A stretch of DNA of 32,000 bases from Thermodesulfobacteriota bacterium. GTDB taxonomy: Bacteria; Desulfobacterota; WTBG01; JAGOGO01. Positions within the stretch are counted from its first letter, which is position 1. Every line of letters begins with the position of its first letter. Both the position numbers and the translations under genes were made by a program. Below are positions 1-15,530 of this stretch, piece after piece. Under the pieces are notes generated by a model. It saw nothing but the letters and a program-made list of their open reading frames with translations, had not been told where the DNA came from and made no database searches. Location: assembly GCA_026625185.1 (NCBI GenBank), contig CP113000.1:1005622-1037621 (forward strand). Reading direction: 5' to 3'.

Positions 1-1316
1 CTTCCTTCGGGGCCGCAATAGTCCTCCATTTTCCGGCATTCGGAACATCCTCCCCCCACCTCAGTTACAAAAAATACTGGTTTTTCTCTAATGGCTTTGT
101 TGGAATATTGTGATACCGAATCATAGAGCAAGTTTTTTGACGCTGTCTCCCAAACTCGAGAACGCATGTTTACCACAATACAAAAACAACCCCGTTCTTT
201 ACATTCACTCAGTTCTATATTCAGGAAATTCGCCTCGAAGATGCTTTTAAGCCCCAGTTGCTTTGCCCGGACAAAAGGGTCATCCGCCTCCTTCAGGTTA
301 ATTGGCGCAGTTGCGTCATATTGGGAAAGCGAAGTTTTAAAAGCAGAACTGAGCATCGCGGCGGGGTCGTTTTCCTGCAGTTCCTGCTGAAGGCCTTGGA
401 TGGCGGGTTGCCATTTGTGCTCAGAGACTTCTCCGGCAATTACACCGCCGGTGAATGCTACAGGCAAATAATATACTGAATATAAAATTGCAACCGGCGG
501 GGCTGACAGATTAAGAAATGCACTGAGGTATGGATGGTCATTCACGAATTGAGAAGAACCATCGCGCTTAAAACTCAACTTCTCTAATCCTATTCCCATC
601 CCCATTGCGCTGATAATGTTCCTCCTTTTCCAATTTGGTGAATTCAACTCTTGAGTGCTGGTGGTCGTGTATCCCATGGGGACAAGTTCACCCATCGTCC
701 GGGTGGTTCTTGGTCTGCTAAGTGGTTTCATGATGACCGATGACAGTGAACCGTATTGCCTGAAAGAAGCCCGGGCAATAACTTTGGCTGATTCAGTCTG
801 GTCAATGACCTTTATCTCAGAACACTGATCTACCTGCCGGCTAATCAATCCTCTTGTGGTTTCGCATGCAGTACTTAGGGTTCCGATATAAATAACCTTA
901 TTACCCTGGGGAACTGAAAACCAAAAACTGTCGGGGGTAAAATAATGAGAGTTCTTCAAGGTATCAACTTTCGGGCTGACCTCAAGATAATAGGTGCCCG
1001 GCTCAAGCATAAAATACACCCACCCATCTTTTCGGGCTTCTGCTGAGGGAAAATCGTAAAAATTAAGATTATTCGTTGAAGAATAAAGGTTGTCACAGGT
1101 TGCTATTACCCAGTAAAATCTTCCCGACCCCTCATTTTTTTGAGAATCAATCTTCGCGGAACACCTAAACAAAACCACGGATTTTCTCTTTTCTTGAGTG
1201 ACCTCCTTAACGTTTATACCCAGGTTTGATCCAGGAGTTGCGCAGCCAAAAAGAAACATTAAAAAAGCATTCAAAGTGATAAAAGCAATTGGTCTTAACC
1301 CTGACATTTTTTTCAT
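1..1316 (-). CDS. Putative lipoprotein of unknown function (N-terminal ~438 aa; the ORF runs off the left window edge)
   Basis: Absent from the ORF track because it has no stop in the window. I checked every codon of this minus-strand frame from 1316 down to 3 and found no stop. The N-terminus MKKMSGLRPIAFITLNAFLMFLFGC has a signal peptide plus a lipobox-like LFGC. AGGAG at 1317-1321 (minus) favours the second ATG, at 1307. A sigma-54 promoter lies 64 nt upstream. I recognise no family. Confidence 0.6.
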   Translation of the reverse strand, partial: MKKMSGLRPIAFITLNAFLMFLFGCATPGSNLGINVKEVTQEKRKSVVLFRCSAKIDSQKNEGSGRFYWVIATCDNLYSSTNNLNFYDFPSAEARKDGWVYFMLEPGTYYLEVSPKVDTLKNSHYFTPDSFWFSVPQGNKVIYIGTLSTACETTRGLISRQVDQCSEIKVIDQTESAKVIARASFRQYGSLSSVIMKPLSRPRTTRTMGELVPMGYTTTSTQELNSPNWKRRNIISAMGMGIGLEKLSFKRDGSSQFVNDHPYLSAFLNLSAPPVAILYSVYYLPVAFTGGVIAGEVSEHKWQPAIQGLQQELQENDPAAMLSSAFKTSLSQYDATAPINLKEADDPFVRAKQLGLKSIFEANFLNIELSECKERGCFCIVVNMRSRVWETASKNLLYDSVSQYSNKAIREKPVFFVTEVGGGCSECRKMEDYCGPEG

Positions 1317-1379
1317 CTCCTTTCACTCTCAAAGTTTCGGATAGTTATTTTTAACTTGAGCTACCCAATGATCGAATAA

Positions 1380-1395
1380 AGCAATTGATGTGCCA
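1380..1395 (-). promoter_or_regulatory. sigma-54 (-24/-12) promoter upstream of the lipoprotein gene
   Basis: The minus strand reads TGGCACATCAATTGCT, which fits the consensus TGGCAC-N5-TTGCW at all fixed positions with correct GG/GC spacing. It lies in an intergenic region 64 nt upstream of the ATG at 1316. Confidence 0.8.
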
Positions 1396-1491
1396 GGGCA
1401 CGAAGATGTTGCTAACTTAATGATTTTGAATAAGATTATGACAAAACCCGGATCAGACTTTGAAAAGGAAGGGGGGTTTAAGGTTCATGCA

Positions 1492-1521
1492 ATGCACTAC
1501 ATCTATACAAATTTTGTATAG
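1492..1521 (-). promoter_or_regulatory. Candidate enhancer (UAS) for a sigma-54 activator
   Basis: ATGCA-N7-TATACAAATTTTG (plus strand 1492-1516) lies inside the near-perfect palindrome CTATACAAATTTTGTATAG (1503-1521). It starts 109 bp upstream of the -24 element. The same 18 fixed bases recur 108 bp upstream of the second sigma-54 promoter. Confidence 0.6.
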
Positions 1522-1575
1522 CACTGAGGTGTCTTCTGGAGGGAGTCGTTCGGAATGTTCCGCATGTTCACGGAA

Positions 1576-2343
1576 CTAGAAATCGGAGGCCAGTGACCTG
1601 AGCTTAAGCATGCGGAGAAGCCAGTGGGCTCCAAAGGCAGCAAACAAATGTTTGAGTGTATGACCGCTCAATATTCCACCGAAAGCGTAGAGAAAGCTAT
1701 CAAAATGCTCTGCCAGTTTTGCCGCGAGGTAAGCCAGCAGCACGACATATAAATCTCTGCTTCGGGTGTAGGGTGACTTATAGGTAATAATAATGAACGG
1801 GATGAGCAGCATGGGCAAAAACTGCACCAGCGCGTAGGGTCTCAAATCGCCTGCCCCTGATTGTTCCGACCAATGCCAATAAAGCACGCTGCCACAACCC
1901 AAGACTATCAGGGGCCATAGCATCACCCTGCCTAATTTTTCGTGCAGATGTTCAGTGATAATCACGCTGAAAAACGCCATAAACGAAAGGGCCATGGGCA
2001 GCCGGTCCCAAAACAGGGTACTGGTGTTCGGATTAAGGTGATAATACGCCGAACCTAAACCGATCAAACAAACTCCCAGGAAGAATAACAGGTATGCGCT
2101 ATAGGCAGGGGTATCAAAGCCAACCCATTTTTTCTTAATGCCGGCAATCGTCCCGATAAGACCCACCATAAAAAGCGGAATATTCGAAATCACATTCCAA
2201 AAATTGGGAATTCCAAGCATCACCCGCCGGTCAGCAAAATGATGATACGCCTCGTCCTGGGGAATCGGCTTAACAAAAAACATGGCGGAAAAAGCAACGA
2301 GGCATATAAAAAGAAAAATGAGGAGTTTTATTTTTTGGCTCAT
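1576..2343 (-). CDS. Ceramidase-like (alkaline phytoceramidase family) polytopic membrane protein
   Basis: ORF 1576-2415, trimmed to the internal MSQKIKLL start at 2343. It is multi-TM with motifs I associate with bacterial PF05875-type proteins: AYHHFADRR..GIPNFWNV.SN, GSAYYHL.P, WDRLPM, LRPYALVQFLP and SGHTLKHL. Confidence 0.7.
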   Translation of the reverse strand: MSQKIKLLIFLFICLVAFSAMFFVKPIPQDEAYHHFADRRVMLGIPNFWNVISNIPLFMVGLIGTIAGIKKKWVGFDTPAYSAYLLFFLGVCLIGLGSAYYHLNPNTSTLFWDRLPMALSFMAFFSVIITEHLHEKLGRVMLWPLIVLGCGSVLYWHWSEQSGAGDLRPYALVQFLPMLLIPFIIITYKSPYTRSRDLYVVLLAYLAAKLAEHFDSFLYAFGGILSGHTLKHLFAAFGAHWLLRMLKLRSLASDF

Positions 2344-2437
2344 ATAGATTGCAGTGTTTCTCTTGTTAATAACGCCTATCCCGTTAATCATCATTATATC
2401 TCTTTTTCCCCTCACCTAAAACAAATTTAATTTGTTA

Positions 2438-3211
2438 TCAATCAGTTGTTCTCATAAACTGACCCTGCCTGATAAAGTTGAGAATTTGTTTTCGCACGTC
2501 CCGATGATTCAGGATAAAGGTATGCTGATGATGGACAACGATGAAGTCTTTCATTTCTTCTAACCGGGCGCTTTCTACAGAAACCCTTCCATCATCCGCC
2601 CCGGGAATGGCAGAAGAGAACCAGGGATTCCCCGGGTTATCACCGGCGATGATTCCAATTTCATAGGGTAACGGCTTTAATGTCCAGACAAGCGCCTTTT
2701 TGTCTGTCCCGATCTGCTGTGCCGCCGGACCGGCAATAATCCCGCATAAGCTCTCCGATTCTTCCTTAAACCGGTCCACCAGCCCACTTCCCTTGTTCGG
2801 GTGACCCACCATAACAATTCTTCCGACATTGGCTATTTTTTTATCCTGGAGGTAATAACGCAGCACTATGCCACCCAGCGAATGGGTTACAAAATGAACC
2901 CGGTCATATTTCCGGAGACACTGCTCGATTTCTTTTCCAACATACTTTGTCGAAATGGTCTGGATATTTTTCGTGACGCTTGGATAGCCGATAATGTAAA
3001 CGTCATACCCCGCTGACTTCAAAAATTTCTCTAATGGTTTAAAAAAGTATTTATTGGACCAGAGACCGTGAAGCACAACAATACACTCCTTTTGGCTTGC
3101 GTAAACCGGCGACCACCAAAGCACCATAAAGGCAAAAATGACTACATAGATTAGGCTATTTTTCAAAACATCTCTTCCTTTTTTGTGAATAATGTAACCT
3201 TCTGGTCTCAT
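2438..3211 (-). CDS. Secreted or membrane-anchored alpha/beta hydrolase (lipase/esterase-like)
   Basis: The N-terminus has a hydrophobic anchor. A VVLHG oxyanion-type motif and the nucleophile elbow HSLGG (GxSxG) are present. Length is about 250 aa. Confidence 0.75.
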   Translation of the reverse strand: MRPEGYIIHKKGRDVLKNSLIYVVIFAFMVLWWSPVYASQKECIVVLHGLWSNKYFFKPLEKFLKSAGYDVYIIGYPSVTKNIQTISTKYVGKEIEQCLRKYDRVHFVTHSLGGIVLRYYLQDKKIANVGRIVMVGHPNKGSGLVDRFKEESESLCGIIAGPAAQQIGTDKKALVWTLKPLPYEIGIIAGDNPGNPWFSSAIPGADDGRVSVESARLEEMKDFIVVHHQHTFILNHRDVRKQILNFIRQGQFMRTTD

Positions 3212-3259
3212 AAGTAAATAATATCCCCATTCCCTCTTCCCGAATAATTTCTTCTTTTG

Positions 3260-4630
3260 TTATGCTTTACTAAGCTGAGGCACCAGATCAAAAATTAATT
3301 TTCTCTCTTTTGCTGGGTTCCAGCCTTTTATATTCCAACAAACCGTACGTCCATAGTAAGCAAAATTGATTGCTGCATGGTAAAGTAATGATGCTAATCC
3401 CCGCGGCCGTTGTGCCTGTCTGGTCAGACGCCTCGCAATCCGCCAGGGGCGATAAAATTCGTACGTTACCCAATCATGCCCCGCTTGCAATGCTTCCGCC
3501 GACATGCCCTGTGGCTGGAAGACCACATTATGAAAATCATAATGAGACCAGTTCCGGTCAAAAATCCGGGAGCTCATGGCTTCAAACCGGGGAGTGCCGG
3601 GCAACGGCGTAAAGATAGAAGCCTGAATTAAATCCACCTCCAGATCATCAAGGAGTTGCAAGGTCCGTTTAAATACCGCAGGGCCGTCGCCGTCAAAACC
3701 AAACACAATCCCCGCTTCCACGCCGATACCATGAGAATGCAGGAGGCGAATCGCTTCCCGATATTTTTCCACCCGGTGAAAACCTTTGTTCACTGCCTCC
3801 AGGTTGCCATCCGAAAAGGTTTCTAAGCCGACAAAAAGGCCGATGCAGCCGGCTTTTGCCATGAGGCGGACAAAGTCGGGATCATCCACTATGCCGAGGG
3901 TCGACTGCGTTACCCATTTTTTCCGCAAAGGCACCAGCGCGTTAAATAGATTCCGGGCGTAGTCTCGATCCGCGGTCAGGTTGTCATCAACCAGAATAAA
4001 AAAACGACCGGGAATTTCCGCTATTTCGTTTGCCACCTCTTCCACCAGACGCCGCCGTTGGGTGTGATGGGAAGCAGCCGAAATAGAACAAAAGTCGCAT
4101 TGATTCTCACAGCCCCTGGTCGCCTGCACTGCCTGAATGGTAGCGTAATGCTTTCCCTGAAGGAGGTGACGAGGCGGTCGCTTAAGCCCCCGCAACTGGC
4201 AGGGGTAATCATTCCGGTAAATACCGCGTAACTGTCCAGCTTGCGCATCAGCGATAACCTTTAGCCAGACTCCCTCGGCATCTCCTGACACAACCGCATC
4301 CGCGTAATTAAGCGCTTCTTCCGCGCAGAGAGTCGGATGCATGCCGCCGAGTACAACCGGAATATTCCTTTTGCGAAATTCAGCCGCGATTTCATAAGCC
4401 CGCGGCGCAAGCGCTGTCATGCAGGTGATGCCTACTAAATCAACTTGTGCGTCCCACGGGACCTCTTCAATCTGTTCATCAATAATTTTAATATCCACAT
4501 CAGGCGGGGTTTCCGCGGCTACGGTTAAAAGGCTTAACATTGAGAACCGGAAGGTCTTGCCGTTAAAAATTCTGTTTTTTCCCACCTTCCGCCACCTTCC
4601 ACTTGCAGGAGCAATTAAAAGAACCTTCAT
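3260..4630 (-). CDS. B12-binding-domain radical SAM enzyme (class B), substrate unknown
   Basis: The CxxxCxxC cluster motif is CENQCDFC. The N-terminus is a Rossmann-like B12-binding region (MKVLLIAP...VGITCMT...VVLGGMHPT). AGGAGG sits 6 nt upstream of the second ATG (4630), so the 4636 start is disfavoured. Confidence 0.85.
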   Translation of the reverse strand: MKVLLIAPASGRWRKVGKNRIFNGKTFRFSMLSLLTVAAETPPDVDIKIIDEQIEEVPWDAQVDLVGITCMTALAPRAYEIAAEFRKRNIPVVLGGMHPTLCAEEALNYADAVVSGDAEGVWLKVIADAQAGQLRGIYRNDYPCQLRGLKRPPRHLLQGKHYATIQAVQATRGCENQCDFCSISAASHHTQRRRLVEEVANEIAEIPGRFFILVDDNLTADRDYARNLFNALVPLRKKWVTQSTLGIVDDPDFVRLMAKAGCIGLFVGLETFSDGNLEAVNKGFHRVEKYREAIRLLHSHGIGVEAGIVFGFDGDGPAVFKRTLQLLDDLEVDLIQASIFTPLPGTPRFEAMSSRIFDRNWSHYDFHNVVFQPQGMSAEALQAGHDWVTYEFYRPWRIARRLTRQAQRPRGLASLLYHAAINFAYYGRTVCWNIKGWNPAKERKLIFDLVPQLSKA

Positions 4631-4679
4631 GATCATCCTCCTTTGGTTATATCGTTTTACGTCAGTTACTCACCAAAAG

Positions 4680-4695
4680 AGCAATGACCGTGCCA
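4680..4695 (-). promoter_or_regulatory. sigma-54 (-24/-12) promoter upstream of the radical SAM gene
   Basis: The minus strand reads TGGCACGGTCATTGCT, a full match to TGGCACG-N4-TTGCW. It is intergenic, about 50 nt upstream of the start at 4630. Confidence 0.85.
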
Positions 4696-4790
4696 GACCG
4701 AATAGTTACGCTTAACAATTTGAATATATTATATATTTAATGGCAGGTTAGTCATTGGCAAATAAGCAGCAAAGAGGATATGATCATTTT

Positions 4791-4822
4791 ATGCAGGAAG
4801 GTTATACAAATTTTGCAGGAAG
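4791..4822 (-). promoter_or_regulatory. Candidate enhancer (UAS) for a sigma-54 activator
   Basis: ATGCA-N7-TATACAAATTTTG (4791-4815) is identical in its fixed bases to the element at 1492-1516. It starts 108 bp upstream of the -24 element. It is embedded in two TGCAGGAAG direct repeats (4792-4800 and 4814-4822) that are 22 bp apart. Confidence 0.6.
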
Positions 4823-5047
4823 AAAGCGATGATGTTGTTGAAAAAACCTTTTGTTGACTTTGCCTCTTCAAAGGATTAAAAAATAAATAATTTATCAATT
4901 CCCAGAAAAAAATAATCGCAGTACAATAATGGGGGCCGCGGAGGAAGGAGATTCCATGAGTGACGAGAATAAAATAAGGCCGAATTACTAAGAATAAAGG
5001 TGATGGGCCTTTTTTACTTTAATGTAAAACCATGATACGAGCTTTGC

Positions 5048-6085
5048 ATGGATAAAAAAGAACAGAATAACTCCCAGTTAGTTTTATATCAGACCGAAGA
5101 CGGCAAGGCACGCATAGAAGTGCGCTTACAGGATGAGACAGTATGGCTCACTCAAAAGATGATGGCTGATCTATTTCAGGTTGCGGTGCCTACTATCAAT
5201 GAGCATATAAAAAATATTTTGGCCGAAGGGGAACTGGTGTCCAAGGCAACTATTAGGAAATTCCTAATAGTTCAAAAAGAAGGCTCTCGGGAGGTATCGC
5301 GTAACGTTGATTTTTTCAACCTCGAAATGATCGTGGCAGTTGGATTTCGTGTCCGGTCACAAAGAGGAACACAGTTTCGTAAATGGGCGATAGATCGTCT
5401 TAATGAGTATATGGTTAAAGGTTTTATCATGGATGACGAACGCCTGAAAGCGGGCATTAATATAGGATCGGATTATTTTGATGAGATGCTGGAACGCATT
5501 CGGGACATCCGTTCCAGCGAGAAGCGGTTTTACCAGAAGATTCGCGATATTTATAAGCTTGCTGTTGATTATGATCCACAAGCGGAAGAAACGCTGGAAT
5601 TTTTTAGTATTGTAAAAAATAAGCTTCATTTCGCTATTTCAGGCAAAACAGCGGCTGAATTGATCTCAGAGCGTGCTGACGCCGCTAAACCCAATATGGG
5701 GCTGAGTTCATGGAGAGGGGCTAAGGTGCGCAGAACAGATGTAACGGTTGCCAAGAATTACCTTAATGAAGCGGAAATGGAAGGATTAAATCGCATTGTC
5801 ACGATGTATCTGGATTTCGCGGAAGATCAGGCAAAACGTCACCGCCAGATTTTCATGCGTGATTGGCGGGCGAAGCTGGATGCTTTTTTAAAATTTAACG
5901 ATCGTGAAATCTTGAAAGATCCCGGCAAGGTGAGCAAGGAGATTGCGGATGCGCTGGCTCTGGAACAGTATGAAATCTTTAACCGCAACAGATTAGCGGT
6001 AGAAGCTGAGCAAGAAGCTATTGCCGATGATAAAGAATTGAAACAGATTCAGAGCAAGATTGAAAAGGGGAAGAGAAAGAAATAA
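5048..6085 (+). CDS. rhuM: RhuM-family protein (virulence/defence-island-associated, DNA-binding-type N-terminus)
   Basis: 345 aa. The N-terminus (LVLYQTEDGKARIEVRLQDETVWLTQKMMADLFQV...INEHIKNILAEGEL) and the central SEKRFYQKIRDIY and MGLSSW motifs match my recollection of the RhuM family (PF13310). Confidence 0.75.
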   Translation: MDKKEQNNSQLVLYQTEDGKARIEVRLQDETVWLTQKMMADLFQVAVPTINEHIKNILAEGELVSKATIRKFLIVQKEGSREVSRNVDFFNLEMIVAVGFRVRSQRGTQFRKWAIDRLNEYMVKGFIMDDERLKAGINIGSDYFDEMLERIRDIRSSEKRFYQKIRDIYKLAVDYDPQAEETLEFFSIVKNKLHFAISGKTAAELISERADAAKPNMGLSSWRGAKVRRTDVTVAKNYLNEAEMEGLNRIVTMYLDFAEDQAKRHRQIFMRDWRAKLDAFLKFNDREILKDPGKVSKEIADALALEQYEIFNRNRLAVEAEQEAIADDKELKQIQSKIEKGKRKK

Positions 6086-6273
6086 TGATAGGCCTTTTTT
6101 TGTTTTGGGACTCAGCTTAGTTGGCGGCTTCGAACCGGCTTATACAGTCTGTAGAAGACCGAAGCTATCAAAACAACAAAATGGTTTAACATTTTAATAT
6201 TATGTGATATTTATAATTTTTCAAGAAAACACGGAAACGTCTTATACAGAAGGCAACCGTCTTTGTTTGCAGT

Positions 6274-6292
6274 ATTATACAGACTGTATAAT
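6274..6292 (+). promoter_or_regulatory. 19-bp perfect palindrome overlapping a TATAAT box (candidate operator/promoter for cassette 1)
   Basis: ATTATACAGACTGTATAAT has 9-bp arms and a 1-nt centre. TATAAT lies at 6287-6292, and TTGTTT lies 18 nt upstream of it. The palindrome ends 5 nt before the proposed cassette boundary. Confidence 0.4.
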
Positions 6293-6297
6293 CTATG

Positions 6298-7136
6298 TTC
6301 GGTATAAAAAAATGGAAAAAAATACTATACAAACTCTTAAAGGTCATTTGTTGGCAGCACGAGCTCTTAAAGACTCGATGGAGAAGTCGCTTGCGTCAAC
6401 TTCAAAGGATAACGTCTGGAAATATGCTAGTTTCAAATCGTATATGTCAACATACCAGAGCATTGTTGCACAAGTATCGACCATAATAAATATCACTGCG
6501 CCTATTGGTGTCTGGGATTTACAAAAAATTCGTGGTTCTCACGATACAACAACCATACAACAACAGGAATTTTTTGAATCAGTTTATGCAAATCTAAACA
6601 TTCTTATCTCATTCATTGAACATTCTATCGATCTTAAGGGCGACGAAATAAGAAGCCTTTGTGATTTTTTTCAGGCAAATCTTAGAAGAGCCGTCTTTGT
6701 AGAACCAGATAAAGAGAAAGAGATACAAGATGTTGTGGAGCAACTGCTGATCGGAAAAGGCTTTGCAAAAGGGATTGACTATGACCGAGAAACCGGCCGC
6801 GTTAAGGTTTCAATTAAGGAAGTAGTTCCTGATTTTATATTGCCGAGATTGTCAATGGCTATAGAGGTCAAGCTGTCAAAAGACAAATCTAAAAGCAAAT
6901 CTATCGTTGACGAGATCAATGCAGATATTCAAGCATACAGCAAGAAATATTCATCTACACTTTTTATCGTTTATGACCTCGGTTCTATTCAAGATGAATT
7001 TGCTTTCAAACATGGCCTTGAAACCATTGATGGGAATATTAGAATAGTCATCGTTAAACATTGAACAATACCGAACAATCGGTTTAACATGGATTGCAAT
7101 TCCGCTGCGCTGCATTGCAACCAGTGAACCGAAACG
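6298..7136 (+). mobile_element. Integron-type gene cassette 1 (PD-(D/E)XK-like ORF plus attC)
   Basis: The left boundary G|TTCGGT (6297-6303) is the exact reverse complement of ACCGAAC (7070-7076), the R'' of the hairpin site after the ORF. The right boundary is G|TT within GTTAGGC (7136-7142). The ORF starts 14 nt inside the boundary. Confidence 0.55.
6312..7064 (+). CDS. Orphan protein with a helical N-terminal domain and a C-terminal PD-(D/E)XK nuclease-like core
   Basis: I use the ATG at 6312 (MEKNTIQ); the 6204 start in the track reads through the promoter/palindrome region. The C-terminal motif is E(VVEQLL)...VVPDFILPRLSMAIEVKL, that is D-x11-E-x-K, with flanking beta-strand-like segments (STLFIVYDLG, IRIVIVKH). 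I recognise no family. Confidence 0.6.
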   Translation: MEKNTIQTLKGHLLAARALKDSMEKSLASTSKDNVWKYASFKSYMSTYQSIVAQVSTIINITAPIGVWDLQKIRGSHDTTTIQQQEFFESVYANLNILISFIEHSIDLKGDEIRSLCDFFQANLRRAVFVEPDKEKEIQDVVEQLLIGKGFAKGIDYDRETGRVKVSIKEVVPDFILPRLSMAIEVKLSKDKSKSKSIVDEINADIQAYSKKYSSTLFIVYDLGSIQDEFAFKHGLETIDGNIRIVIVKH

Positions 7137-7142
7137 TTAGGC
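7070..7142 (+). other. attC-like recombination site 1
   Basis: R'' is ACCGAAC (7070-7076) and R' is GTTAGGC (7136-7142). Between them is an imperfect hairpin: 7080-7084 pairs with 7127-7131, 7088-7092 with 7121-7126 (one bulge), and 7094-7100 with 7114-7120. Bases are bulged on both arms, and 3- to 4-nt unpaired spacers sit next to the R boxes. The site starts 6 nt after the ORF stop. Confidence 0.55.
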
Positions 7143-8124
7143 CGTGACCGAATCTATTCACACCCATAAGGAGATTTCCCGAAATGGACATTCCACGGAT
7201 TTTCAACATCACCGAAAGTGCTCACCGCATCCATAACCCGTTCACACCCGAAAAGCTCGCCACTCTCGGCGCGGCGCTGCGTCTGGAAACGGGGACCCGA
7301 GTGCTCGACCTCGGCAGCGGTTCGGGGGAGATGCTGTGCACCTGGGCACGCGATTACGGAGTCATCGGCACCGGCATCGACATGAGCCAGTTGTTCACCG
7401 AGCAAGCGAAACTCCGCGCTGAAGAACTCGGAGTCGCCAATCAAGTCAAGTTCATCCATGGCGATGCTACCGGCTACGTCTCGGACGACAGGGCCGGTGT
7501 GGCAGCCTGTATCGGTGCTACATGGATCGCTGGGGGAGTCATCGGCACTATCGGGCTTCTGGCGCAGAGCCTCCGCACCGGAGGGATCATCCTCATCGGC
7601 GAGCCATACTGGCGGCAGTTACCGCCGACGGAAGATGTTGCCAAGGGGTGTCTTGCCAACTCAATCTCCGACTTTCTCATGCTTCCAGAACTTCTCGCGT
7701 CTTTCGGCCACCTTGGCTACGACGTCGTTGAAATGGTTCTGGCTGACCAAGACGGCTGGGACAGATACGAGGCGGCCAAATGGCTCACCATGCGCCGATG
7801 GCTTGAAGCCAATCCCGACGACGAGTTCGCGAAAGATGTTCGAGCCAAACTGACCTCGGAACCCGAGCGCTACGCCGCTTACACGCGTGAATACCTGGGC
7901 TGGGGGGTGTTCGCGCTGATGCCGCGGTGATTCGTTGGCGTATCCGGCGGATCGTCAACGGCTGTGCCACGCAACAGCTGGTGGCTCGCCGAGATGTGAT
8001 TGCGCCTGAATTCATTTCTTATGGTCTAGTTATCCGTGCAATCAACAGAAAGGTCTGTCTCAAGCAGGCCTAACATCAATTCATTCAAGCCGACGCCGCT
8101 TCGCGGCGCGGCTTAATTCAGGCG
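7137..8124 (+). mobile_element. Integron-type gene cassette 2 (SAM-methyltransferase plus aadA-type attC), GC-rich
   Basis: It starts with TTAGGC, and its own attC R'' is GCCTAAC (8068-8074), an exact complement of G+TTAGGC as a circular cassette requires. It ends at the G of GTTCCAG (8124). Its composition is visibly much more GC-rich than cassette 1 and the flanking genome. Confidence 0.7.
7184..7930 (+). CDS. Class I SAM-dependent methyltransferase (small-molecule type; no DNA-methyltransferase motifs)
   Basis: Motif I is VLDLGSGSGEM, followed by an acidic post-I residue (GIDMS) and a Rossmann-fold pattern. AAGGAG lies 9 nt upstream of the ATG. I saw no DPPY/NPPY or PCQ motifs. Confidence 0.85.
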   Translation: MDIPRIFNITESAHRIHNPFTPEKLATLGAALRLETGTRVLDLGSGSGEMLCTWARDYGVIGTGIDMSQLFTEQAKLRAEELGVANQVKFIHGDATGYVSDDRAGVAACIGATWIAGGVIGTIGLLAQSLRTGGIILIGEPYWRQLPPTEDVAKGCLANSISDFLMLPELLASFGHLGYDVVEMVLADQDGWDRYEAAKWLTMRRWLEANPDDEFAKDVRAKLTSEPERYAAYTREYLGWGVFALMPR

Positions 8125-8130
8125 TTCCAG
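8068..8130 (+). other. attC site 2 (aadA-like 59-base element)
   Basis: Sequence: GCCTAAC-ATCAATTCATTC-AAGCCGACGCCGC-TTC-GCGGCGCGGCTT-AATTCAGGC-GTTCCAG. It forms a 12-bp stem (8087-8099 with 8103-8114) with one extrahelical A (8093). The 33-nt core TTCAAGCCGACGCCGCTTCGCGGCGCGGCTTAA matches, from memory, the core of the aadA1 attC of class 1 integrons. Confidence 0.8.
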
Positions 8131-8156
8131 CCAGGCTATCCAAATTCTTTAACACG

Positions 8157-11100
8157 TTAGGCTAAGCTTTGGGCCAGGGCTTTGGCCTGGGAAAAGTCGG
8201 CTTTGCCGCTCCCTAACTTGGGAATGCTCTCAACCTTTATGATGCTATCCGGCAGCATCAAGGGGTCCACCTTGTTTTCGATCAATTTTTGTCGTATGAC
8301 CGCCGGATCGATCTCTCCGGCAAACAGGAGAACGATTTTTTCTCCTTTTTTCGCGTCCGGCAAAGCCACTACCGCAAGCTCCATCTCTTTATTGTCCAGC
8401 GCGCCGGCAACCGCTTCTTCCACCGCGCCCAGACTTATCATCTCACCCCCGATCTTGGCAAACCGGGAATAGCGGTCAAGAATGGTAAGAAAGCCGTCGT
8501 CGTCAAGCTGTCCTTTATCTCCGGTCTTGTACCAGCGGATGCCGTCTTTTTCAACAATAACTTCCTGAGTCTTTTTTTCGTTTTTCAGGTAGCCGGCCAT
8601 TATTTGCGGACCGCCGACAAGGATAAGACCCGCCTCACCCGCTGGCAGTTCCTCCAGAGTTGCCGGGTCAACGATTTTAAAGCTTGTGCCGGGAAGGGGT
8701 AATCCCACGGTGCCAATCTTGGTCCCCTGCTGCACGGACCAATCACCGGTCTTGAGCACATCCGGAAGATTGACGCTGGCGACCGGAGTTGTTTCCGTGA
8801 CACCGTAACCTTCGTAAATATCAAGACCGAATTTTGCCTTAAAATCTTCCCGTACCTCGCCGCTTAATTTTTCCGCACCCGCGACAACCAGCCGCAGGGA
8901 TTCAAACATCAGCGGATGAAGCTTCTTGTTTTTGTTATACAGCCGCAAAAAAGTAGAGGTGGAACATAAAATTGTCGCCCGGTGTTCCGCAACCAGCTTG
9001 CCGATTGCGTACGCATTTGTAGGATCTGGGTGGCAAACCACTGGAATACCTTCCACCAGGGGAAGAAAAGAGGTTACCGTCAGACCGAATGAGTGAAAAA
9101 GCGGCAGCACACTTAACAGAACATCGCTTTCTTGGAAATTTAAAACACTGGCAACCTGCTTGATGTTGCCCACAATGTTGCGGTGAGTCAGCTGAACCCC
9201 TTTGGGCAGGCCTTCACTCCCACTGCTAAACACGATAGCCGCGACATCATCGAGCGATGTTTTTTTGGAATACAACAACTTTAAAAGAAACGCCGGCAAC
9301 AGTTTAACCAGGAACGCGGTTCGAATAAGCGAGATCTTGCCAAACTGCTCTCTGAGCTCTTCGAGGAAAACCACTTTTTTATCAGCCAGAAATTCTGAAG
9401 CCGGAAACCCTTTGTTGTTCAAAGTGGTCACAAAACGTTTCGAGGTGAGAATGGTCTTTATTTCCGCCTGTTCAACCGCCTGCATAAGACTTGCCTGCGA
9501 GGCGGTGTAGTTCAGGTTCACCACGGTCTTGCCCAGCATTAATACCGACAGGTTGGCAATTATACCGCCCGAGCTGGTAGGAAGGAGCAAGCCCACATTG
9601 TGTTCCTGTCTTAATTTCTTTTTCAACGCCTGAGCAAAAACTATCGCCGCCGTTAAAAGCCGGTGGGAAGAAAAAGACGTGCCGTCAAAATCAATCAACC
9701 ATTTTTCGTTTTTAATCTTTTTTGCGGTCTTGAGCCATTGAATGGGGATAGTGCTCAAGGCATCAGAATACTGCAGCCAGGAATGGATTGATAACCCCAG
9801 AACCGCTTTTTTCACTTCCGCTGCCGTTGCGTCTCTGGAAAGGGGTTTGCCGAAACACACCGACACATCGCGGGTTCTCTTAAGCCGGGACATCTCCCGG
9901 TGCTTGGGGGTGGCAAAAGAATAAAGGCTTCCCCACAATCCGCGAAGGTAAAAGGGAATAATAACGGCCGCGGCATTTTTTATTGCCAGTTCAAATCCGC
10001 GATGAAACACCCCAACCTGCCCATTGCGGCTCAGCGCCCCTTCGGGGAAAAGGACTACCACCTCACCCTGATTGAGAAGCTTTTCAATAACATCGATAGC
10101 CTCCCTGCTCGCACTGGAGGAAATCGGAACAACCCCAAAGAAATCCAAAAATTTCTTTAAGAACCACTTTTCATAATATCCTCGATACATCACAAACCGA
10201 ACCCGACGGGGGCAGGCCATTTGAACAATGGCCCAGTCCAGATAGCTGGTGTGATTGCCGAGCATGAGTACTCCACCAGAAGAAGGGATGTTATTCATAC
10301 CTATGACCTGAAGCTTATAGTGTTGCGAAACTAATGTAGCAATCACATAGCGAATAAACGACTGCGGCAATTTAATGAAGGTGTAAACCGCTCCGCAAAA
10401 AGCGATGATAAATAATCCTTTAAAGATATAAACGCTGCCTATTCCCTTAAGGGCAGTGCCGATCGCAAGAACCAGGAAGAAGAGCATAACCGCGTTCTGG
10501 AGAAAATTATTCCCCGCCAGCACCTTGCCCAGCTCTTCGCCCTTCGCGTTAAACTGGATGAGGGAATTCAAGGGCACAATAAACATTCCCCCCGCAATTC
10601 CGTAAAGGAAAAACAGGAGCGCGAACCAGGCAATGCTGGTGGTTGAGGGAAGGAGAAAAAGCAAAACCGTGATTCCGATCGCGCTCGCCGGGATCATCCC
10701 GGTCTCAATGTAGTTTTTGGACACCTTGCCCGCGAGCAGCGAGCCGACAATGACTCCGATACCGGCTATGGCCATCAAGCCCTGCGCGATGACTGTATTG
10801 GTGACATCTGCCGTCTCCTTCAAATACGCTCCAAAGGCCGCGAACACCACCTGGTTAATCCCCCAAAAAATCGCCAGCCCGATAATGCTGAGCCAGATCA
10901 CCTCGTTTCCCTTGATCGCCCGAAGGTTTTCTTTCAAATAGTTTCCGGTCACATATTGTTTCCTATCAAAGGCGAGCTCCCTTTTTGTTTCGGTCTTTTG
11001 CGGAAGCGTGAACGCCCACAGGGCTTCGATGGCGGTTCCCACAATAATCAGATATCCCAGCGGAGCAATGGAAGTGAGAATGTCGCTTAAGGTGCGAAAA

Positions 11101-11606
11101 TCCGGGTTATAAATTTTTTCAAAAAGGATGGAGTAAATAAAAACCCCCAGCAAAATAGCCGCGATGCTCACCGCCTGCACAAAAGCGTTGCCAATGGCGA
11201 TGTTTTCTTTTCCGGCCAGTTCCTTGATGTACCCGTACTTGGCCGGAGATAAAAAAGCGGCCTGTATGGCCAGTATAAAAATGAGAATAAAAGAAGTCTT
11301 AAACCAGCCCGCATAAAAACTGACGGTAATAAAAATAGCCAGAACAAAAGCGGACACCGCCGAAACCTTAATCACTTTGTCCTTGGGATACTTATCGGAA
11401 AGATACCCGGCCGGGGTAAACAGCATGACAAAAGGCAAAAGGATCAGGGCGTTCACTACTGCGGTAAGAATGATCTGGGTTGGGCCGGAGAAATATTTAA
11501 ACACCGTGTTTTGGATAATGATTTTATGCCCCAGTTCATTAAAGGCATTCAAAAACACGATCAGGAGATAGGGAAGGAAACCTCTGATTTTTAAAACCTC
11601 AAACAT
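8157..11606 (-). CDS. aas: Triple fusion: MFS lysophospholipid transporter (LplT-like), PlsC-type acyltransferase and acyl-ACP/AMP-forming synthetase (Aas-like)
   Basis: 1149 aa. The N-terminal ~410 aa are polytopic and MFS-like. The acyltransferase HX4D motif is NHTSYLD. The adenylation motifs are SSGSEGLPKG, GYGVTETT and YKTGDKG. This corresponds to E. coli LplT and Aas joined in one polypeptide. Confidence 0.85.
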   Translation of the reverse strand: MFEVLKIRGFLPYLLIVFLNAFNELGHKIIIQNTVFKYFSGPTQIILTAVVNALILLPFVMLFTPAGYLSDKYPKDKVIKVSAVSAFVLAIFITVSFYAGWFKTSFILIFILAIQAAFLSPAKYGYIKELAGKENIAIGNAFVQAVSIAAILLGVFIYSILFEKIYNPDFRTLSDILTSIAPLGYLIIVGTAIEALWAFTLPQKTETKRELAFDRKQYVTGNYLKENLRAIKGNEVIWLSIIGLAIFWGINQVVFAAFGAYLKETADVTNTVIAQGLMAIAGIGVIVGSLLAGKVSKNYIETGMIPASAIGITVLLFLLPSTTSIAWFALLFFLYGIAGGMFIVPLNSLIQFNAKGEELGKVLAGNNFLQNAVMLFFLVLAIGTALKGIGSVYIFKGLFIIAFCGAVYTFIKLPQSFIRYVIATLVSQHYKLQVIGMNNIPSSGGVLMLGNHTSYLDWAIVQMACPRRVRFVMYRGYYEKWFLKKFLDFFGVVPISSSASREAIDVIEKLLNQGEVVVLFPEGALSRNGQVGVFHRGFELAIKNAAAVIIPFYLRGLWGSLYSFATPKHREMSRLKRTRDVSVCFGKPLSRDATAAEVKKAVLGLSIHSWLQYSDALSTIPIQWLKTAKKIKNEKWLIDFDGTSFSSHRLLTAAIVFAQALKKKLRQEHNVGLLLPTSSGGIIANLSVLMLGKTVVNLNYTASQASLMQAVEQAEIKTILTSKRFVTTLNNKGFPASEFLADKKVVFLEELREQFGKISLIRTAFLVKLLPAFLLKLLYSKKTSLDDVAAIVFSSGSEGLPKGVQLTHRNIVGNIKQVASVLNFQESDVLLSVLPLFHSFGLTVTSFLPLVEGIPVVCHPDPTNAYAIGKLVAEHRATILCSTSTFLRLYNKNKKLHPLMFESLRLVVAGAEKLSGEVREDFKAKFGLDIYEGYGVTETTPVASVNLPDVLKTGDWSVQQGTKIGTVGLPLPGTSFKIVDPATLEELPAGEAGLILVGGPQIMAGYLKNEKKTQEVIVEKDGIRWYKTGDKGQLDDDGFLTILDRYSRFAKIGGEMISLGAVEEAVAGALDNKEMELAVVALPDAKKGEKIVLLFAGEIDPAVIRQKLIENKVDPLMLPDSIIKVESIPKLGSGKADFSQAKALAQSLA

Positions 11607-11823
11607 TTTTTATTCCTTTTAACTGGATAAATAATTTATCCTCTTTAAATTCCAAAAACTATGCCGGCTCTGGTGATATTTATAACTATCTGATTCGTCT
11701 AATATAAATATTTTTGTCTTTTATTTCAATCAATGCTACACTTGACGGGTATCCAAATATTGTATCGCTTGTAAACATTTATTGTAAACAACTTTAAGAC
11801 AAATATTTTGAGGATCGGGAAAA

Positions 11824-13320
11824 ATGACAACTAAAAAGGGCTTAAGCCAAAAAGAGCGTGAATTTTTCGCCTTGGTCACTCAGGCTATTTCTGCCAACCC
11901 CTTTAGTGATGAAAGGATAGAGATTGACTTAAGGCTTAGTGGATTATCTCCTGGAGTTTCGCGCACCGAGCGGATAGCAAAACTGGCTGAAGAGTTAAAT
12001 GCTCGGATAAAGCTTCTGGAAAAGGAAGGCGTGGTTCATCTTGACCATTTTTCTCCTGAAGATCGAAAGTTGGCGGAGAATATTTTTCTTTTTGCTTTCT
12101 ATCTCCAGTTGATTGATAAATTTGATATCCACATCCAGGAACAGATTAAGGCGGGAGATACCCCCTTAAAAGTCCCTTTCGCTCAAGAGGCTCTCACTTT
12201 TTTATTGGCCAAGGGTTTCAGCACTGAGGTTGCTTTGCGGTATTTTGCCTTGGGCTATCAGGTCAGGAGAGCCTACTTTTTTATTGACCACAGCCTGGTG
12301 GGTCGAAGCCCCATCATGAAAGAGCTTCGTAAAAATTTATGGAATAATGTTTTTACTTATAACCTTTTATTTTATGATCAGCATTTGTGGAACCGGATGG
12401 AGGACTTTTCTACCCTAATTTTAGGGGAAACCGGAGCCGGAAAAGGTAATGCGGCCAAGGCGATCGGCCGTTCGGGTTTTATCCCTTTTAATGAAAAAAA
12501 GCAGTGCTTTGTGGAAAGTTTTACCCAATCATTTCTAGCGATAAATCTTTCCCAGTTTCCTGAGTCCTTAATTGAATCCGAACTCTTCGGACACAAAAGA
12601 GGTGCTTTTACCGGAGCAGTAGAAGACTATAAAGGGGTACTCACCCGTTGCAGCCCTCACGGAGCAATTTTTTTGGATGAGATTGGAGAAATTCCCGCTC
12701 CCGTGCAAATCAAACTCCTCCAGATTCTGCAGGAAAGGGTCTTCACTCCGGTGGGGAGCCACCAAAAAGTCCGCTTCCCGGGCCGGGTTATTGCGGCTAC
12801 CAACCGACCCCTCAAAAAAATTCGGGAGCAGCGGATCTTCCGTGATGACTTTTTCTATCGTCTCTGCTCAGACATTATCAAGGTCCCATCTCTCGTCCAG
12901 CGCCTGGAGGAAGACCCTAAGGAACTCAATGAACTTCTCGCGCATACTGTTGAGCGAATCGTTGGGAAACCTTCACCTGAGCTTACTGGTATGGTGCTCG
13001 ATGTAATTGATAAAAAGTTGGGAAAACACTATACCTGGCCAGGGAATGTACGCGAGCTAGAGCAGTGTGTCCGGCGGGTACTCCTGAAACGTAATTACGA
13101 GGGTGATTACAAAGCAACCACCCCTGATTTATCTTCACAGTTCAGGGACGCGGTTGAGGCTGATAACGTGGATGCTCAGAGTCTGCTTGCACGTTATTGT
13201 TTTCAGCTCTATCAGCGTTATGGAACCTTCGAAGAAGTCGCCCGGCGCGCTAAACTCGACCGCCGCACCGTCAAAAAATACGTAGAGGACTGGAAAACAA
13301 GATGGGGCGAGAGGGCGTAG
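11824..13320 (+). CDS. sigma-54-dependent transcriptional activator (bEBP) with a non-receiver N-terminal domain
   Basis: Motifs of the AAA+ sigma-54 interaction domain: Walker A GETGAGKG, ESELFGHKRGAFTGA (GAFTGA loop), Walker B IFLDEIG, FRDDFFYRL and WPGNVRELE. A C-terminal Fis-type HTH is present (FEEVARRAKLDRRTVKKY). The first ~190 aa are not a CheY-like receiver. Confidence 0.9.
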   Translation: MTTKKGLSQKEREFFALVTQAISANPFSDERIEIDLRLSGLSPGVSRTERIAKLAEELNARIKLLEKEGVVHLDHFSPEDRKLAENIFLFAFYLQLIDKFDIHIQEQIKAGDTPLKVPFAQEALTFLLAKGFSTEVALRYFALGYQVRRAYFFIDHSLVGRSPIMKELRKNLWNNVFTYNLLFYDQHLWNRMEDFSTLILGETGAGKGNAAKAIGRSGFIPFNEKKQCFVESFTQSFLAINLSQFPESLIESELFGHKRGAFTGAVEDYKGVLTRCSPHGAIFLDEIGEIPAPVQIKLLQILQERVFTPVGSHQKVRFPGRVIAATNRPLKKIREQRIFRDDFFYRLCSDIIKVPSLVQRLEEDPKELNELLAHTVERIVGKPSPELTGMVLDVIDKKLGKHYTWPGNVRELEQCVRRVLLKRNYEGDYKATTPDLSSQFRDAVEADNVDAQSLLARYCFQLYQRYGTFEEVARRAKLDRRTVKKYVEDWKTRWGERA

Positions 13321-13408
13321 GGGGGAAAACAATTTATTTGTCTGAAAGCAATTAAAAAAGATTCGCCATTATATTGAAAATTAGCAGCACCAAAAAGTTA
13401 CAAATGCC

Positions 13409-13438
13409 TTGACATTTGATGAAGAGGTGTGTTAAAAT
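13409..13438 (+). promoter_or_regulatory. sigma-70-type promoter for dsrD
   Basis: TTGACA (13409-13414), an 18-nt spacer, then TAAAAT (13433-13438). AAGGAGG lies 5 nt upstream of the dsrD ATG. Confidence 0.6.
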
Positions 13439-13485
13439 TTATAAATATTTTTTGGAATATATTTTAATCTCTTAAGGAGGAAAAA

Positions 13486-13719
13486 ATGGCTAATGAAGAA
13501 GTAAAGCAGCGGATTATTGACTTTTTTAAACAGTCCAAAGGCAAGAGCAAGTTTTATTTAAGCGACCTTACCAAAGCCGCGCCTGAACTTTCAAAAAAGG
13601 ATTTAAAAAAGGTTACCACCGAGATGATTGCTGAAGGGACGCTGATGTACTATTCTACGGGAAGCACAACCATGCTCCAGCTCTCAGAAGCAGATGTGGA
13701 TGCAAAATTAAAAGAATAA
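13486..13719 (+). CDS. dsrD: DsrD, the small winged-helix protein of dissimilatory sulfite reduction
   Basis: 77 aa. It aligns by eye with Desulfovibrio DsrD: KQ.I.DFF...KGKSKFYL.D..K..P.....D.KK....M..EG.L.YYSTGSTTM versus ...KSKFYFNDF...YWSSGSTTM. Confidence 0.85.
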   Translation: MANEEVKQRIIDFFKQSKGKSKFYLSDLTKAAPELSKKDLKKVTTEMIAEGTLMYYSTGSTTMLQLSEADVDAKLKE

Positions 13720-13767
13720 CCAACGAATAAATTAACCTCAGCTATCGTGGGAATGAGGGCGAGATCG

Positions 13768-14112
13768 TCAGATTTTTTCTTCCCTCTTTCCCTTATACCA
13801 TAAACAAAATTCTAACATCCCCCGATACCGCTCATCCTCTTCCAGGATACCCCTGCAGATTTCAAAAGCTCCTTGCAAAAAGGCATTGCTCGGGCTAATG
13901 AAATCTTTTTCTTTAAGAAATTGATGCCAAAGGCTTACGAGACGTTCCCGGTCGCCTTCTTTTCCATTTATCCTATCAAACGGTTCCTTGGGTTTCTGGA
14001 AGGGATCCCAATTCTCATATCCCTTTTTAAGAATCCCTTGTTGCCTCTTGGGCGACATCGCCTCGAATATTTCCCGTTTCTTTTGTTCTTCCTCTGGAGA
14101 AAGTGTGGTCAT
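13768..14112 (-). CDS. Hypothetical protein, last gene of the dsrAB-TPR-FKBP transcription unit
   Basis: 114 aa and charged. Its ATG directly abuts the FKBP stop codon (TAA at 14113-14115, ATG at 14110-14112), which suggests translational coupling. I recognise no family. Confidence 0.55.
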   Translation of the reverse strand: MTTLSPEEEQKKREIFEAMSPKRQQGILKKGYENWDPFQKPKEPFDRINGKEGDRERLVSLWHQFLKEKDFISPSNAFLQGAFEICRGILEEDERYRGMLEFCLWYKGKREEKI

Positions 14113-14643
14113 TTATTCTATTCCAAGGTCAGTGGACCATACCTTTTTTTTGGTTGCCGGTTCAAAGTCGCAAGGTTTCACAATTTTTAGTTCTGCTTGA
14201 GTAGCCGGCCTGACTTCAACGACGTTTAGGCAATAGGTCAAGGTCCTCCCCGCAAAAGGGTGATTGTAGTCAAGGATAACGCTACCCAATCCTTTTTCTT
14301 TGACAAAATAGCCGCAGGTTATTTTGTGCTTATCATTTTTTGCCAAAACCCATTTTCCGGATTCGAGAGTTTTTCCCTCTGGAAATTCAGAAAAATTTTT
14401 TTCTTTAACTAAAGATGGGTCATAAAAGCCAAAAGCCTCTTCAGGCGGGATCGTTAGGGTAATTTCATCTCCTTGGTTTAAGCCGATCAGTCGCTTTTCT
14501 AAACCAGGCAATACTTGGTCAAACCCAGAAATAAAATCCATGCATTCTAACCCTTCATTTGGGTCTCCTTTAAGAATTTCCCCAGACTCAAGGCGTACCG
14601 TATATTTTATCCTTACATACGTGCCGATCTCACTGACTTGCAT
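14113..14643 (-). CDS. FKBP-type peptidyl-prolyl cis-trans isomerase, SlyD-like (with an insert-in-flap region)
   Basis: The pattern V.I.Y...L..GE......E....F..G..QVLPGLE..L.GL..GD......PPEEAFG.YD..L, followed by LDYNHPFAGRTL.Y...V..V, is typical of SlyD/FkpA-type FKBP domains. Confidence 0.85.
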   Translation of the reverse strand: MQVSEIGTYVRIKYTVRLESGEILKGDPNEGLECMDFISGFDQVLPGLEKRLIGLNQGDEITLTIPPEEAFGFYDPSLVKEKNFSEFPEGKTLESGKWVLAKNDKHKITCGYFVKEKGLGSVILDYNHPFAGRTLTYCLNVVEVRPATQAELKIVKPCDFEPATKKKVWSTDLGIE

Positions 14644-14671
14644 CTTATCCTTTTTTCAATTCTTGAATTGT

Positions 14672-15307: not shown

Positions 15308-15463
15308 CAGCTTAATCCTTTATTTAACTAAAGAACTTTTTTAGGTAAAGTTTATCTAACTAATTTGGAAATTGCAAATTTATTGCGGGAAAAACAAAAA
15401 GCGCGGGAATAACGGTTGGAATTGTAAGCTCCGTTACTGAAATTATATCGATCACATAACCGA

Positions 15464-15510
15464 GAAAAAAAGCGTAAGGAGGGAGAAAATAACATTTCTC
15501 CTTACGCTTT
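15464..15510 (-). terminator. Rho-independent terminator (or attenuator) after dsrB
   Basis: A perfect 11-bp stem pairs AGCGTAAGGAG (15471-15481) with CTCCTTACGCT (15498-15508). On the minus strand it is followed by a T-run (plus-strand A-run 15465-15470). Confidence 0.7.
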
Positions 15511-15530
15511 CAAGTAACTTTTTTTGTATT

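Follow-up and report, generated by a model that had tools for sequence, protein, structure and literature searches.

Two sigma-54 promoters with paired upstream sites, probably a lipid-related regulon of a single-component activator in a Thermodesulfobacteriota bacterium

In the well-described sigma-54 systems NtrC–glnAp2 and NifA–nifH, a −24/−12 promoter is combined with two adjacent dimer sites approximately 100–140 bp upstream, lying on one helical face, and with an AAA+ activator containing GAFTGA; in nifH, an integration host factor (IHF) bend lies between the enhancer and the promoter. PspF–pspA is an envelope-related sigma-54 regulon with tandem upstream sites and IHF, in which the activator gene is divergent from its target and is autoregulated via the same sites. 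In the sulfate reducer Desulfovibrio vulgaris, sigma-54, IHF, and the cognate single-component activator OrpR co-regulate several operons of the orp system (PMC3897727, PMC8359166). According to the latter report, OrpR senses redox via an iron-sulfur cluster. Here, we analyzed a 32,000-nucleotide stretch of contig CP113000.1 from a Thermodesulfobacteriota bacterium (hereafter, the window), which contains two elements resembling −24/−12 promoters with related upstream sites, and a gene for a sigma-54 activator, or bacterial enhancer-binding protein (bEBP). Comparison of the window with related loci makes it likely, in our judgment, that both elements act as genuine sigma-54 promoters and belong to one regulon under the control of this single-component activator. 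The three features concerned are as follows.

4680 to 4695, minus strand: predicted sigma-54 promoter of an operon that begins with a radical S-adenosylmethionine (SAM) gene, TGGCACGGTCATTGCT, an exact consensus match
1380 to 1395, minus strand: predicted sigma-54 promoter of a lipoprotein unit, TGGCACATCAATTGCT, an exact consensus match
11824 to 13320, plus strand: sigma-54 activator (bEBP) with an all-helical N-terminal domain (approximately residues 1–190), an AAA+ core with GAFTGA, and a C-terminal helix-turn-helix (HTH)

The original prediction, made from the letters of this stretch, had claimed two sigma-54 sites matching TGGCAC-N5-TTGCW that would be rare by chance, and both were present as stated. 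Exact matches in the window were found only at 4695–4680 and 1395–1380 on the minus strand, both reading TGGCAC-N5-TTGCT, against an expectation of 0.04 per window; two matches occurred in none of 100 dinucleotide shuffles. Each promoter carries GG at −24 and GC at −12, ten bases apart. Furthermore, both are correctly oriented and stand a short distance from a downstream gene with a ribosome-binding site. The −12 GC of the radical SAM promoter is 45 nt upstream of the ATG at 4636, which is preceded by AGGAGG, and 74 nt separate the −12 GC of the lipoprotein promoter from the ATG at 1307, which is preceded by AAGGAG. The radical SAM and lipoprotein genes that flank the promoters were as originally described.

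Upstream of both promoters, the block CAAAATTTGTATA-N7-TGCAT (minus strand) was found exactly at 1492–1516 and at 4791–4815. For this block, 0.06 matches are expected even with 3 mismatches allowed, and it was the strongest direct repeat within 1200–8400. The common block is longer than first noted, since it continues to TGCAT-N3-ATGA. A survey of related loci (L numbers below) was then used, and the motif T[AG]CA-N5-TG[TC]A was counted within 400 bp upstream of activator orthologues. There were 47 sites, corresponding to 1.53 per kb upstream of the orthologues compared to 0.087 per kb elsewhere (17-fold), and no spacer of N3–N9 other than N5 exceeded 0.23 per kb. Those 47 sites, all from other genomes, were used to build a weight matrix, with the window left out. 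Its top four matches in the window were 1502–1522 (score 19.4), 4801–4821 (14.5), 11770–11790 (14.1), and 11748–11768 (10.9). A first-order Markov null gave 0.07 matches per 32 kb at a score of at least 14, whereas three were observed. The sites in the window are listed below.

4805 to 4817, minus strand: strong activator site of the radical SAM promoter, TGCAAAATTTGTA; center 4811, 116 bp from the −24 T; matrix score 14.5, second in the window
4783 to 4795, minus strand: weak second activator site of the radical SAM promoter, TGCATAAAATGAT; center 4789, 94 bp from the −24 T; matrix score 5.2
1503 to 1521, minus strand: strong activator site of the lipoprotein promoter, CTATACAAAATTTGTATAG, a perfect 9+1+9 palindrome; center 1512, 117 bp from the −24 T; matrix score 19.4, best in the window
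1484 to 1496, minus strand: weak second activator site of the lipoprotein promoter, TGCATTGCATGAA; center 1490, 22 bp from the strong site; matrix score 3.9
11748 to 11790, no strand assigned: third activator site pair, between aas and the activator gene; centers 11758 and 11780, 22 bp apart; matrix scores 10.9 and 14.1, fourth and third in the window; kept in L014 and L016

The fifth-best matrix match, at 17030–17050 (score 10.5), is inside dsrA and is kept in L016; it is probably a coding coincidence.

All three regions in the window obeyed one pair rule, with centers 22 bp apart (1512/1490, 4811/4789, and 11758/11780). Distances of the second site from the strong site showed the same preference among the surveyed loci, with 40 cases at 22 bp, 13 at 11 bp, and 0–4 at neighboring distances. 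Distances from the site center to the −24 T clustered at 84, 94–97, 106–108, 116–118, and 128 bp, and 25 of 28 site-promoter pairs fell in one 4-bp phase window of an 11-bp period. The sites are, as expected of an enhancer, inverted repeats 80–150 bp upstream of −24, in helical phase, and tied to the activator across genomes. The upstream region had been described as an 18-base element at identical spacing. The bases were indeed exact in both places, but they do not form a single motif; they belong to two TACA-N5-TGTA dimer sites, one strong and one weak, with centers 22 bp apart, and the “ATGCA” of that description is the left half of the weak second site. Similarly, the spacing is equal within 1 bp but not identical (116 and 117 bp from the strong-site center to the −24 T); the 108 and 109 bp given at first had been counted between the TATAC block and the initial T of TGGCAC. 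The palindrome at 1503–1521 proved to be real, 19 bp long, and exact. Its interpretation as an RNA hairpin or terminator was rejected, as only one copy folds, weakly, and without a U tract. No Rfam match was found in window positions 1–14000.

Between the activator sites and each promoter there is an AT-rich block, which had been proposed as the expected IHF bend site, and the proposal agrees with the following two features.

4713 to 4725, minus strand: IHF-like site of the radical SAM promoter, ATTCAAATTGTTA, one mismatch to WATCAANNNNTTR
1413 to 1425, minus strand: IHF-like site of the lipoprotein promoter, AATCATTAAGTTA, one mismatch to WATCAANNNNTTR; the L016 orthologue has the exact consensus AATCAATGAGTTA

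Both IHF-like sites begin exactly 30 bp upstream of the −24 T, and this position was locked across the family. The exact IHF consensus was observed at the identical −30 offset in L014, L016, L019, L027, and L030. Across the family promoters, WATCAANNNNTTR begins 30 bp upstream of the −24 T in approximately half, being exact in 5 of 22 and having one mismatch in 9 of 22, compared to backgrounds of 0.3% and 5.8%. IHF may thus participate at both window promoters.

Conservation at orthologous promoters had been named as a check. When this was run, the fixed positions were kept while spacers and flanks diverged in L016, L102, L099, and L014. In L016, whose activator is 85% identical, the lipoprotein orthologue is preceded by TGGCACGGCCATTGCT, with the palindrome CTATACAAATTTTGTATAG 116 bp upstream and the exact IHF sequence AATCAATGAGTTA; the N5 spacer and flanks differ from those of the window, whereas the fixed bases are equal. 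L102, an 89% identical strain with a 94% identical radical SAM protein, has the promoter TGGCATGGTCATTGCT with an activator site at 116 bp, and L099, a Desulfobacterales metagenome-assembled genome (MAG) with a 71% identical radical SAM protein, has TGGCATAAATATTGCA with a strong site 87 bp upstream. In L014 and L019, TGGCAT-N5-TTGC is accompanied by AATACAAAAAATGTA(T/C)T 94–95 bp upstream and by the exact IHF consensus; there, these elements precede a different operon, which is located after the activator gene. Alternatively, the similarity of the two window promoters could be a relic of a promoter duplication or of the 5.8-kb insertion described below, reflecting shared descent with one or both copies being non-functional. 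As such a relic would predict, the alignment of the two 260-bp regions shows 72% column identity, and the segment containing the radical SAM promoter is absent from close relatives. However, the identical columns cluster in the activator sites, the IHF-like site, and the −24/−12 elements, whereas the N5 spacer and flanks differ. Each promoter is also conserved separately in other genomes: that of the lipoprotein unit is kept in L016, and that of the radical SAM operon in L102 and L099. We therefore assign a duplication relic only a very small probability.

In the close relative L014, positions 11516–16557 contain an extra sigma-54-driven operon between the activator gene and dsrD, comprising four unannotated genes and a different radical SAM gene of 519 aa.

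The protein encoded at 11824–13320 had been put forward as the regulator, and this assignment gained comparative support from the motif enrichment, the window-free matrix, and gene adjacency. An activator orthologue is divergently adjacent to a radical SAM orthologue in two distant genomes, L011 (a Verrucomicrobiota MAG, with an Lgt-like gene after the radical SAM gene) and L100 (a Thermodesulfobacteriota MAG, with a VIT-VWA gene after the radical SAM gene). It is also conceivable that the sigma-54 promoters are real but that their shared element is bound by a different activator encoded elsewhere, the 11824–13320 protein controlling its immediate neighbors only. The activator gene is 7–10 kb from both promoters, and in L099 the promoter and site are present with no activator on its 9.7-kb contig; moreover, Desulfobacterota have many sigma-54 activators, 37 in D. 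vulgaris (PMC4641369). Nevertheless, a motif derived beside orthologues of the 11824–13320 protein in approximately 45 other loci ranks the window elements top, the same motif pair sits in this protein's own upstream region, and its orthologues adjoin radical SAM orthologues in two other phyla or classes. Because motif, matrix, and adjacency link the sites to the 11824–13320 family, we consider a different activator improbable, and the 11824–13320 protein is very probably the regulator of both units. Furthermore, in at least 13 loci (L025, L026, L032, L033, L059, L067, L073, L079, L080, L081, L093, L096, and L097) the palindrome overlaps the activator's own start codon (…TG[TC]ATGG), which suggests autoregulation combined with a divergent enhancer.

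A different kind of control would apply if sigma-70 promoters drove transcription and the palindrome were a repressor operator, for example of a MarR-type regulator as in other phyla. A sigma-70-like ATGACT-16-TATAAT with a 10/12 match is located at 4755–4728 (minus strand), between the activator sites and the sigma-54 promoter, and the radical SAM orthologues in L004–L007, L009, and L010 directly follow a MarR-type gene. However, sigma-70-like matches were not above chance in the region (5 found compared to 7.0 expected), no MarR gene is near either unit in the window, and the sites keep defined distances and a common phase relative to the −24 element. This was the least probable of the alternatives that we weighed.

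Under control by the 11824–13320 activator, the mechanism would be canonical enhancer-dependent sigma-54 activation, whose architecture is already textbook. Activator dimers would bind the strong and weak TACA-N5-TGTA sites, whose centers, 22 bp apart on one helix face, are approximately 116 and 94 bp upstream of the −24 element. The DNA would be bent by an IHF-type protein at the site fixed 30 bp upstream of the −24 T; through this bend, the assembled AAA+ ring would reach the sigma-54 holoenzyme in its closed complex, which would then be opened by ATP hydrolysis. Such activator binding would place the two units under common regulation. The regulon would comprise the radical SAM-hydrolase-ceramidase-like operon and the lipoprotein unit, and probably also aas and the autoregulated activator gene. 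The predicted targets, and the element before aas, are given below.

3260 to 4636, minus strand: B12-binding radical SAM gene, 458 aa, first gene of the operon (Pfam B12-binding and Radical_SAM)
2438 to 3211, minus strand: alpha/beta hydrolase, lipase/thioesterase-like, 257 aa (Pfam Palm_thioest, DUF676, and Abhydrolase)
1576 to 2415, minus strand: ceramidase-like polytopic membrane hydrolase (Pfam PF05875; synteny with L014 and L016)
1 to 1307, minus strand: lipoprotein gene with start ATG 1307 and lipobox LFGC, running off the window; 464 aa in the full record
8157 to 11606, minus strand: Aas, a fusion of an LplT-type major facilitator superfamily transporter, an acyltransferase, and an acyl-acyl carrier protein synthetase (NCBIfam NF006386, 1513 bits against a cut-off of 1221)
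11651 to 11666, minus strand: degenerate sigma-54-like element before aas, tentative, CGGCATAGTTTTTGGA

The third site pair is a candidate enhancer for aas and, at the same time, a candidate autoregulatory site. The aas element reads CGGCAT-N5-TTGG on the aas strand and is 92 and 114 bp from the third site pair; in relatives, it reads TGGCAT-N5-TTGG (L014) and TGGCAT-N5-TTGA (L016). Between aas and the activator gene, the intergenic sequence shows 85% conservation across the window, L014, and L016, and Aas-like genes carry better sigma-54 sites in L033 and L090.

Several observations weigh against the proposed regulon. The second sites in the window are weak (scores 5.2 and 3.9), and the aas promoter is tentative because its −12 C is missing. 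In L100, half-sites only and a TTGA −12 element were present. Most radical SAM orthologues from other phyla are located behind a MarR-type gene and not behind an activator of the 11824–13320 type. Neither rpoN nor ihf genes are within the 32-kb window, and their presence in the genome is assumed from the lineage. The survey covered about 100 related loci, many of them from related Desulfobacterota, such that the counts are not independent. Finally, the lipid theme of the targets rests on the Pfam names of neighbors, and the lipoprotein and the L014 operon are among the unannotated targets.

Regarding the target genes themselves, homologues of the radical SAM protein with 62–71% identity were found in Verrucomicrobiota, Omnitrophota, Planctomycetia, Kiritimatiellae, Sumerlaeia, and Desulfobacterota, and a genome-contig scan with this protein detected 8 distant loci. 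No curated NCBIfam equivalog matched it, the hits being sub-threshold only (BchE, 108 bits with a cut-off of 481; ladderane-type lipid radical SAM, 55 with a cut-off of 360), and its best sequence match in PDB was an unnamed radical SAM protein (E = 4e-8). Nothing matching was found in the literature on B12 radical SAM lipid enzymes. In L008, the radical SAM gene follows a receiver-type sigma-54 activator gene, and in L010 an Aas-like gene comes after the radical SAM gene. For the lipoprotein, ATG 1307 is a more likely start than 1316, because the Shine-Dalgarno spacing fits, the L016 orthologue is without the upstream ATG, and NCBI calls a 464-aa protein. The lipoprotein family is small, with only 12 homologues among 5.8 billion proteins. 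In L001, an overlapping JGI contig, four more unannotated genes follow the lipoprotein gene at 6035–11830, one of which (8470–9870) is a 51% identical paralogue. On the other side, the activator gene is followed by dsrD, dsrBA, selB, lolA, and ftsK, and the presence of dsrD and dsrBA indicates that the organism is a sulfate reducer.

BLAST of L016 and L014 against the window gave homologous blocks at 1295–2332 and from 8162–8164 onward, and in both loci a ceramidase-like gene comes directly after aas. Therefore, window positions 2333–8163 are a 5.8-kb insertion, or a deletion occurred in the relatives. Located in this segment are the genes for the hydrolase and the radical SAM protein, the latter with its promoter and sites, as well as RhuM, a DpnII-like endonuclease gene, and a high-GC methyltransferase; the GC content of the segment varies from 0.36 to 0.57. 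No direct repeats flanking the 5.8-kb segment were found. Around the start of the DpnII-like gene, at 6140–6291, there is a 20-nt inverted repeat that is 90% complementary, with arms 112 nt apart. The idea that the activator gene would have been closer to its targets before the accessory insertion holds for the lipoprotein promoter, but the radical SAM promoter, itself inside the insertion, was never closer. Because the promoter and sites lie inside 2333–8163, the radical SAM cassette thus appears to bring its own compatible promoter, which would now also drive the ceramidase-like gene. In this case, the radical SAM and hydrolase genes would have arrived as a cassette already equipped with a promoter and sites suited to the resident regulator. 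Within the same segment, JGI metagenome 3300040744 has two contigs, one ending at window position 7350 and the other starting at 7852. NCBI MAG contig JARDUI010000189.1 bridges 7350–7852 with 100% identity, and the join is backed by synteny to its left and right; the gap may reflect strain variation or an assembly junction within the methyltransferase gene. The window is identical to a contig of MAG GCA_029216075.1.

The activator has a Sigma54_activat domain (PF00158, E = 8e-42) with GETGAGKG, FLDEIGE, and RGAFTGA, and residues 464–493 match a Fis/NinH-type HTH. The Walker A/B and GAFTGA positions, as well as LDRRT-K of the HTH, are invariant in 59 homologues. A Foldseek search with the full-length model matched FleQ, FlrC, and NtrC1, through their AAA+ cores only. 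The AlphaFold confidence (predicted local distance difference test) was 88 for the whole activator and 85–95 for the N-terminal domain, which forms a nine-helix bundle before the AAA+ core. This domain had no Pfam match at E ≤ 0.05, no PDB sequence match below E = 0.057, and no Foldseek match below E = 1.3, and it matches none of the receiver, GAF, PAS, V4R, PrpR_N, CARF, and ACT classes. The earlier description of a bEBP with an unusual sensor domain was therefore correct, in that the bEBP motifs and HTH are present and no Pfam family covers the first ~190 residues. When 1.84 billion representatives were searched with a profile of the N-terminal domain, 839 clusters (at 50% identity) were obtained, in which full-length members were all 470–520 aa with the domain N-terminal; a profile of this domain also retrieved 80 metagenome loci. 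The recurrent neighbors of the family were as follows.

Aas/AMP-binding genes: 18 loci
Divergent VIT-VWA genes: 18 loci
Divergent PfaA-like ketosynthase-acyltransferase-enoyl-reductase synthase genes (~1900 aa): 14 loci
PlsC-type acyltransferase genes, downstream: 10 loci
Further recurrent neighbors: lipase_3, LytB-UbiA, ceramidase-like, and Lgt-like genes

Several of these neighbors have sigma-54 sites accompanied by the motif; ceramidase-like, Lgt-like, Aas, VIT-VWA, and PfaA-like genes adjoin activator orthologues and have sigma-54 sites. The D. vulgaris regulome paper lists no comparable lipid or acyltransferase target. In a literature search on sigma-54 together with pfaA or secondary lipids, no paper linking both was found, and a 2011 survey of secondary lipids names no regulator or sigma factor. 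The novelty lies in the activator family, in the motif and spacing rules that it follows, and in its lipid-related regulon.

In E. coli, the lysophospholipid that arises from lipoprotein N-acylation is reacylated by LplT-Aas. Lgt is the enzyme that transfers diacylglycerol to lipoproteins. The targets across the family, mostly lipid and cell-envelope genes, point to homeostasis of membrane lipids and lipoprotein lipids. On account of these family-wide targets, the most likely role would be remodeling or repair of membrane lipids and lipoproteins, on a signal read by the new N-terminal domain. A further, speculative proposal is that the family is an unrecognized sensor of lipid or membrane state in anaerobes, in which the helical domain binds a lipid-derived ligand, such as a free fatty acid, acyl thioester, or lysophospholipid, and the activator switches on mobile, plug-in lipid-remodeling genes. 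Among their products would be a highly conserved B12 radical SAM enzyme acting chemically on acyl chains or on the lipid anchors of lipoproteins. We regard this as rather unlikely, though worth stating; if it were true, the radical SAM reaction could explain unassigned bacterial lipid biomarkers of anoxic sediments. In any event, an uncharacterized activator family of 839 clusters gains a predicted recognition sequence, spacing rules (22 bp, 11-bp phasing, and a fixed IHF offset), and a target list. This list ties a conserved B12 radical SAM enzyme to lysophospholipid reacylation by Aas, acyltransferases, Lgt-like and ceramidase-like enzymes, and lipoproteins, and so offers a starting point for testing what the radical SAM enzyme does and how membrane remodeling is controlled in anaerobes.

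Compared to the known systems, the enhancer geometry of NtrC–glnAp2 and NifA–nifH is like that of the window promoters, whereas the recognition sequence differs: TACA-N5-TGTA with 22 bp between centers here, TGT-N10-ACA for NifA, and TGCACC-N5-GGTGCA for NtrC. The 11824–13320 activator also differs from NtrC and NifA in having neither a receiver nor a GAF domain. Resemblance to XylR/DmpR-type regulators lies in the order of N-terminal sensor, AAA+ core, and HTH and in IHF-assisted looping, but the 11824–13320 protein is without V4R/XylR_N, its best N-terminal Foldseek match being at E = 1.3. The OrpR–orp system is similar in that the activator gene is close to its targets and several operons are controlled; however, the sensor domain of the 11824–13320 protein is all-helical and without a known relative, and the targets differ too. 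PspF–pspA shares the envelope theme, the tandem sites with IHF, and a divergent, autoregulated activator gene. In contrast, PspF has no sensor domain and is controlled by PspA, whereas the 11824–13320 activator has a conserved N-terminal domain of 190 residues.

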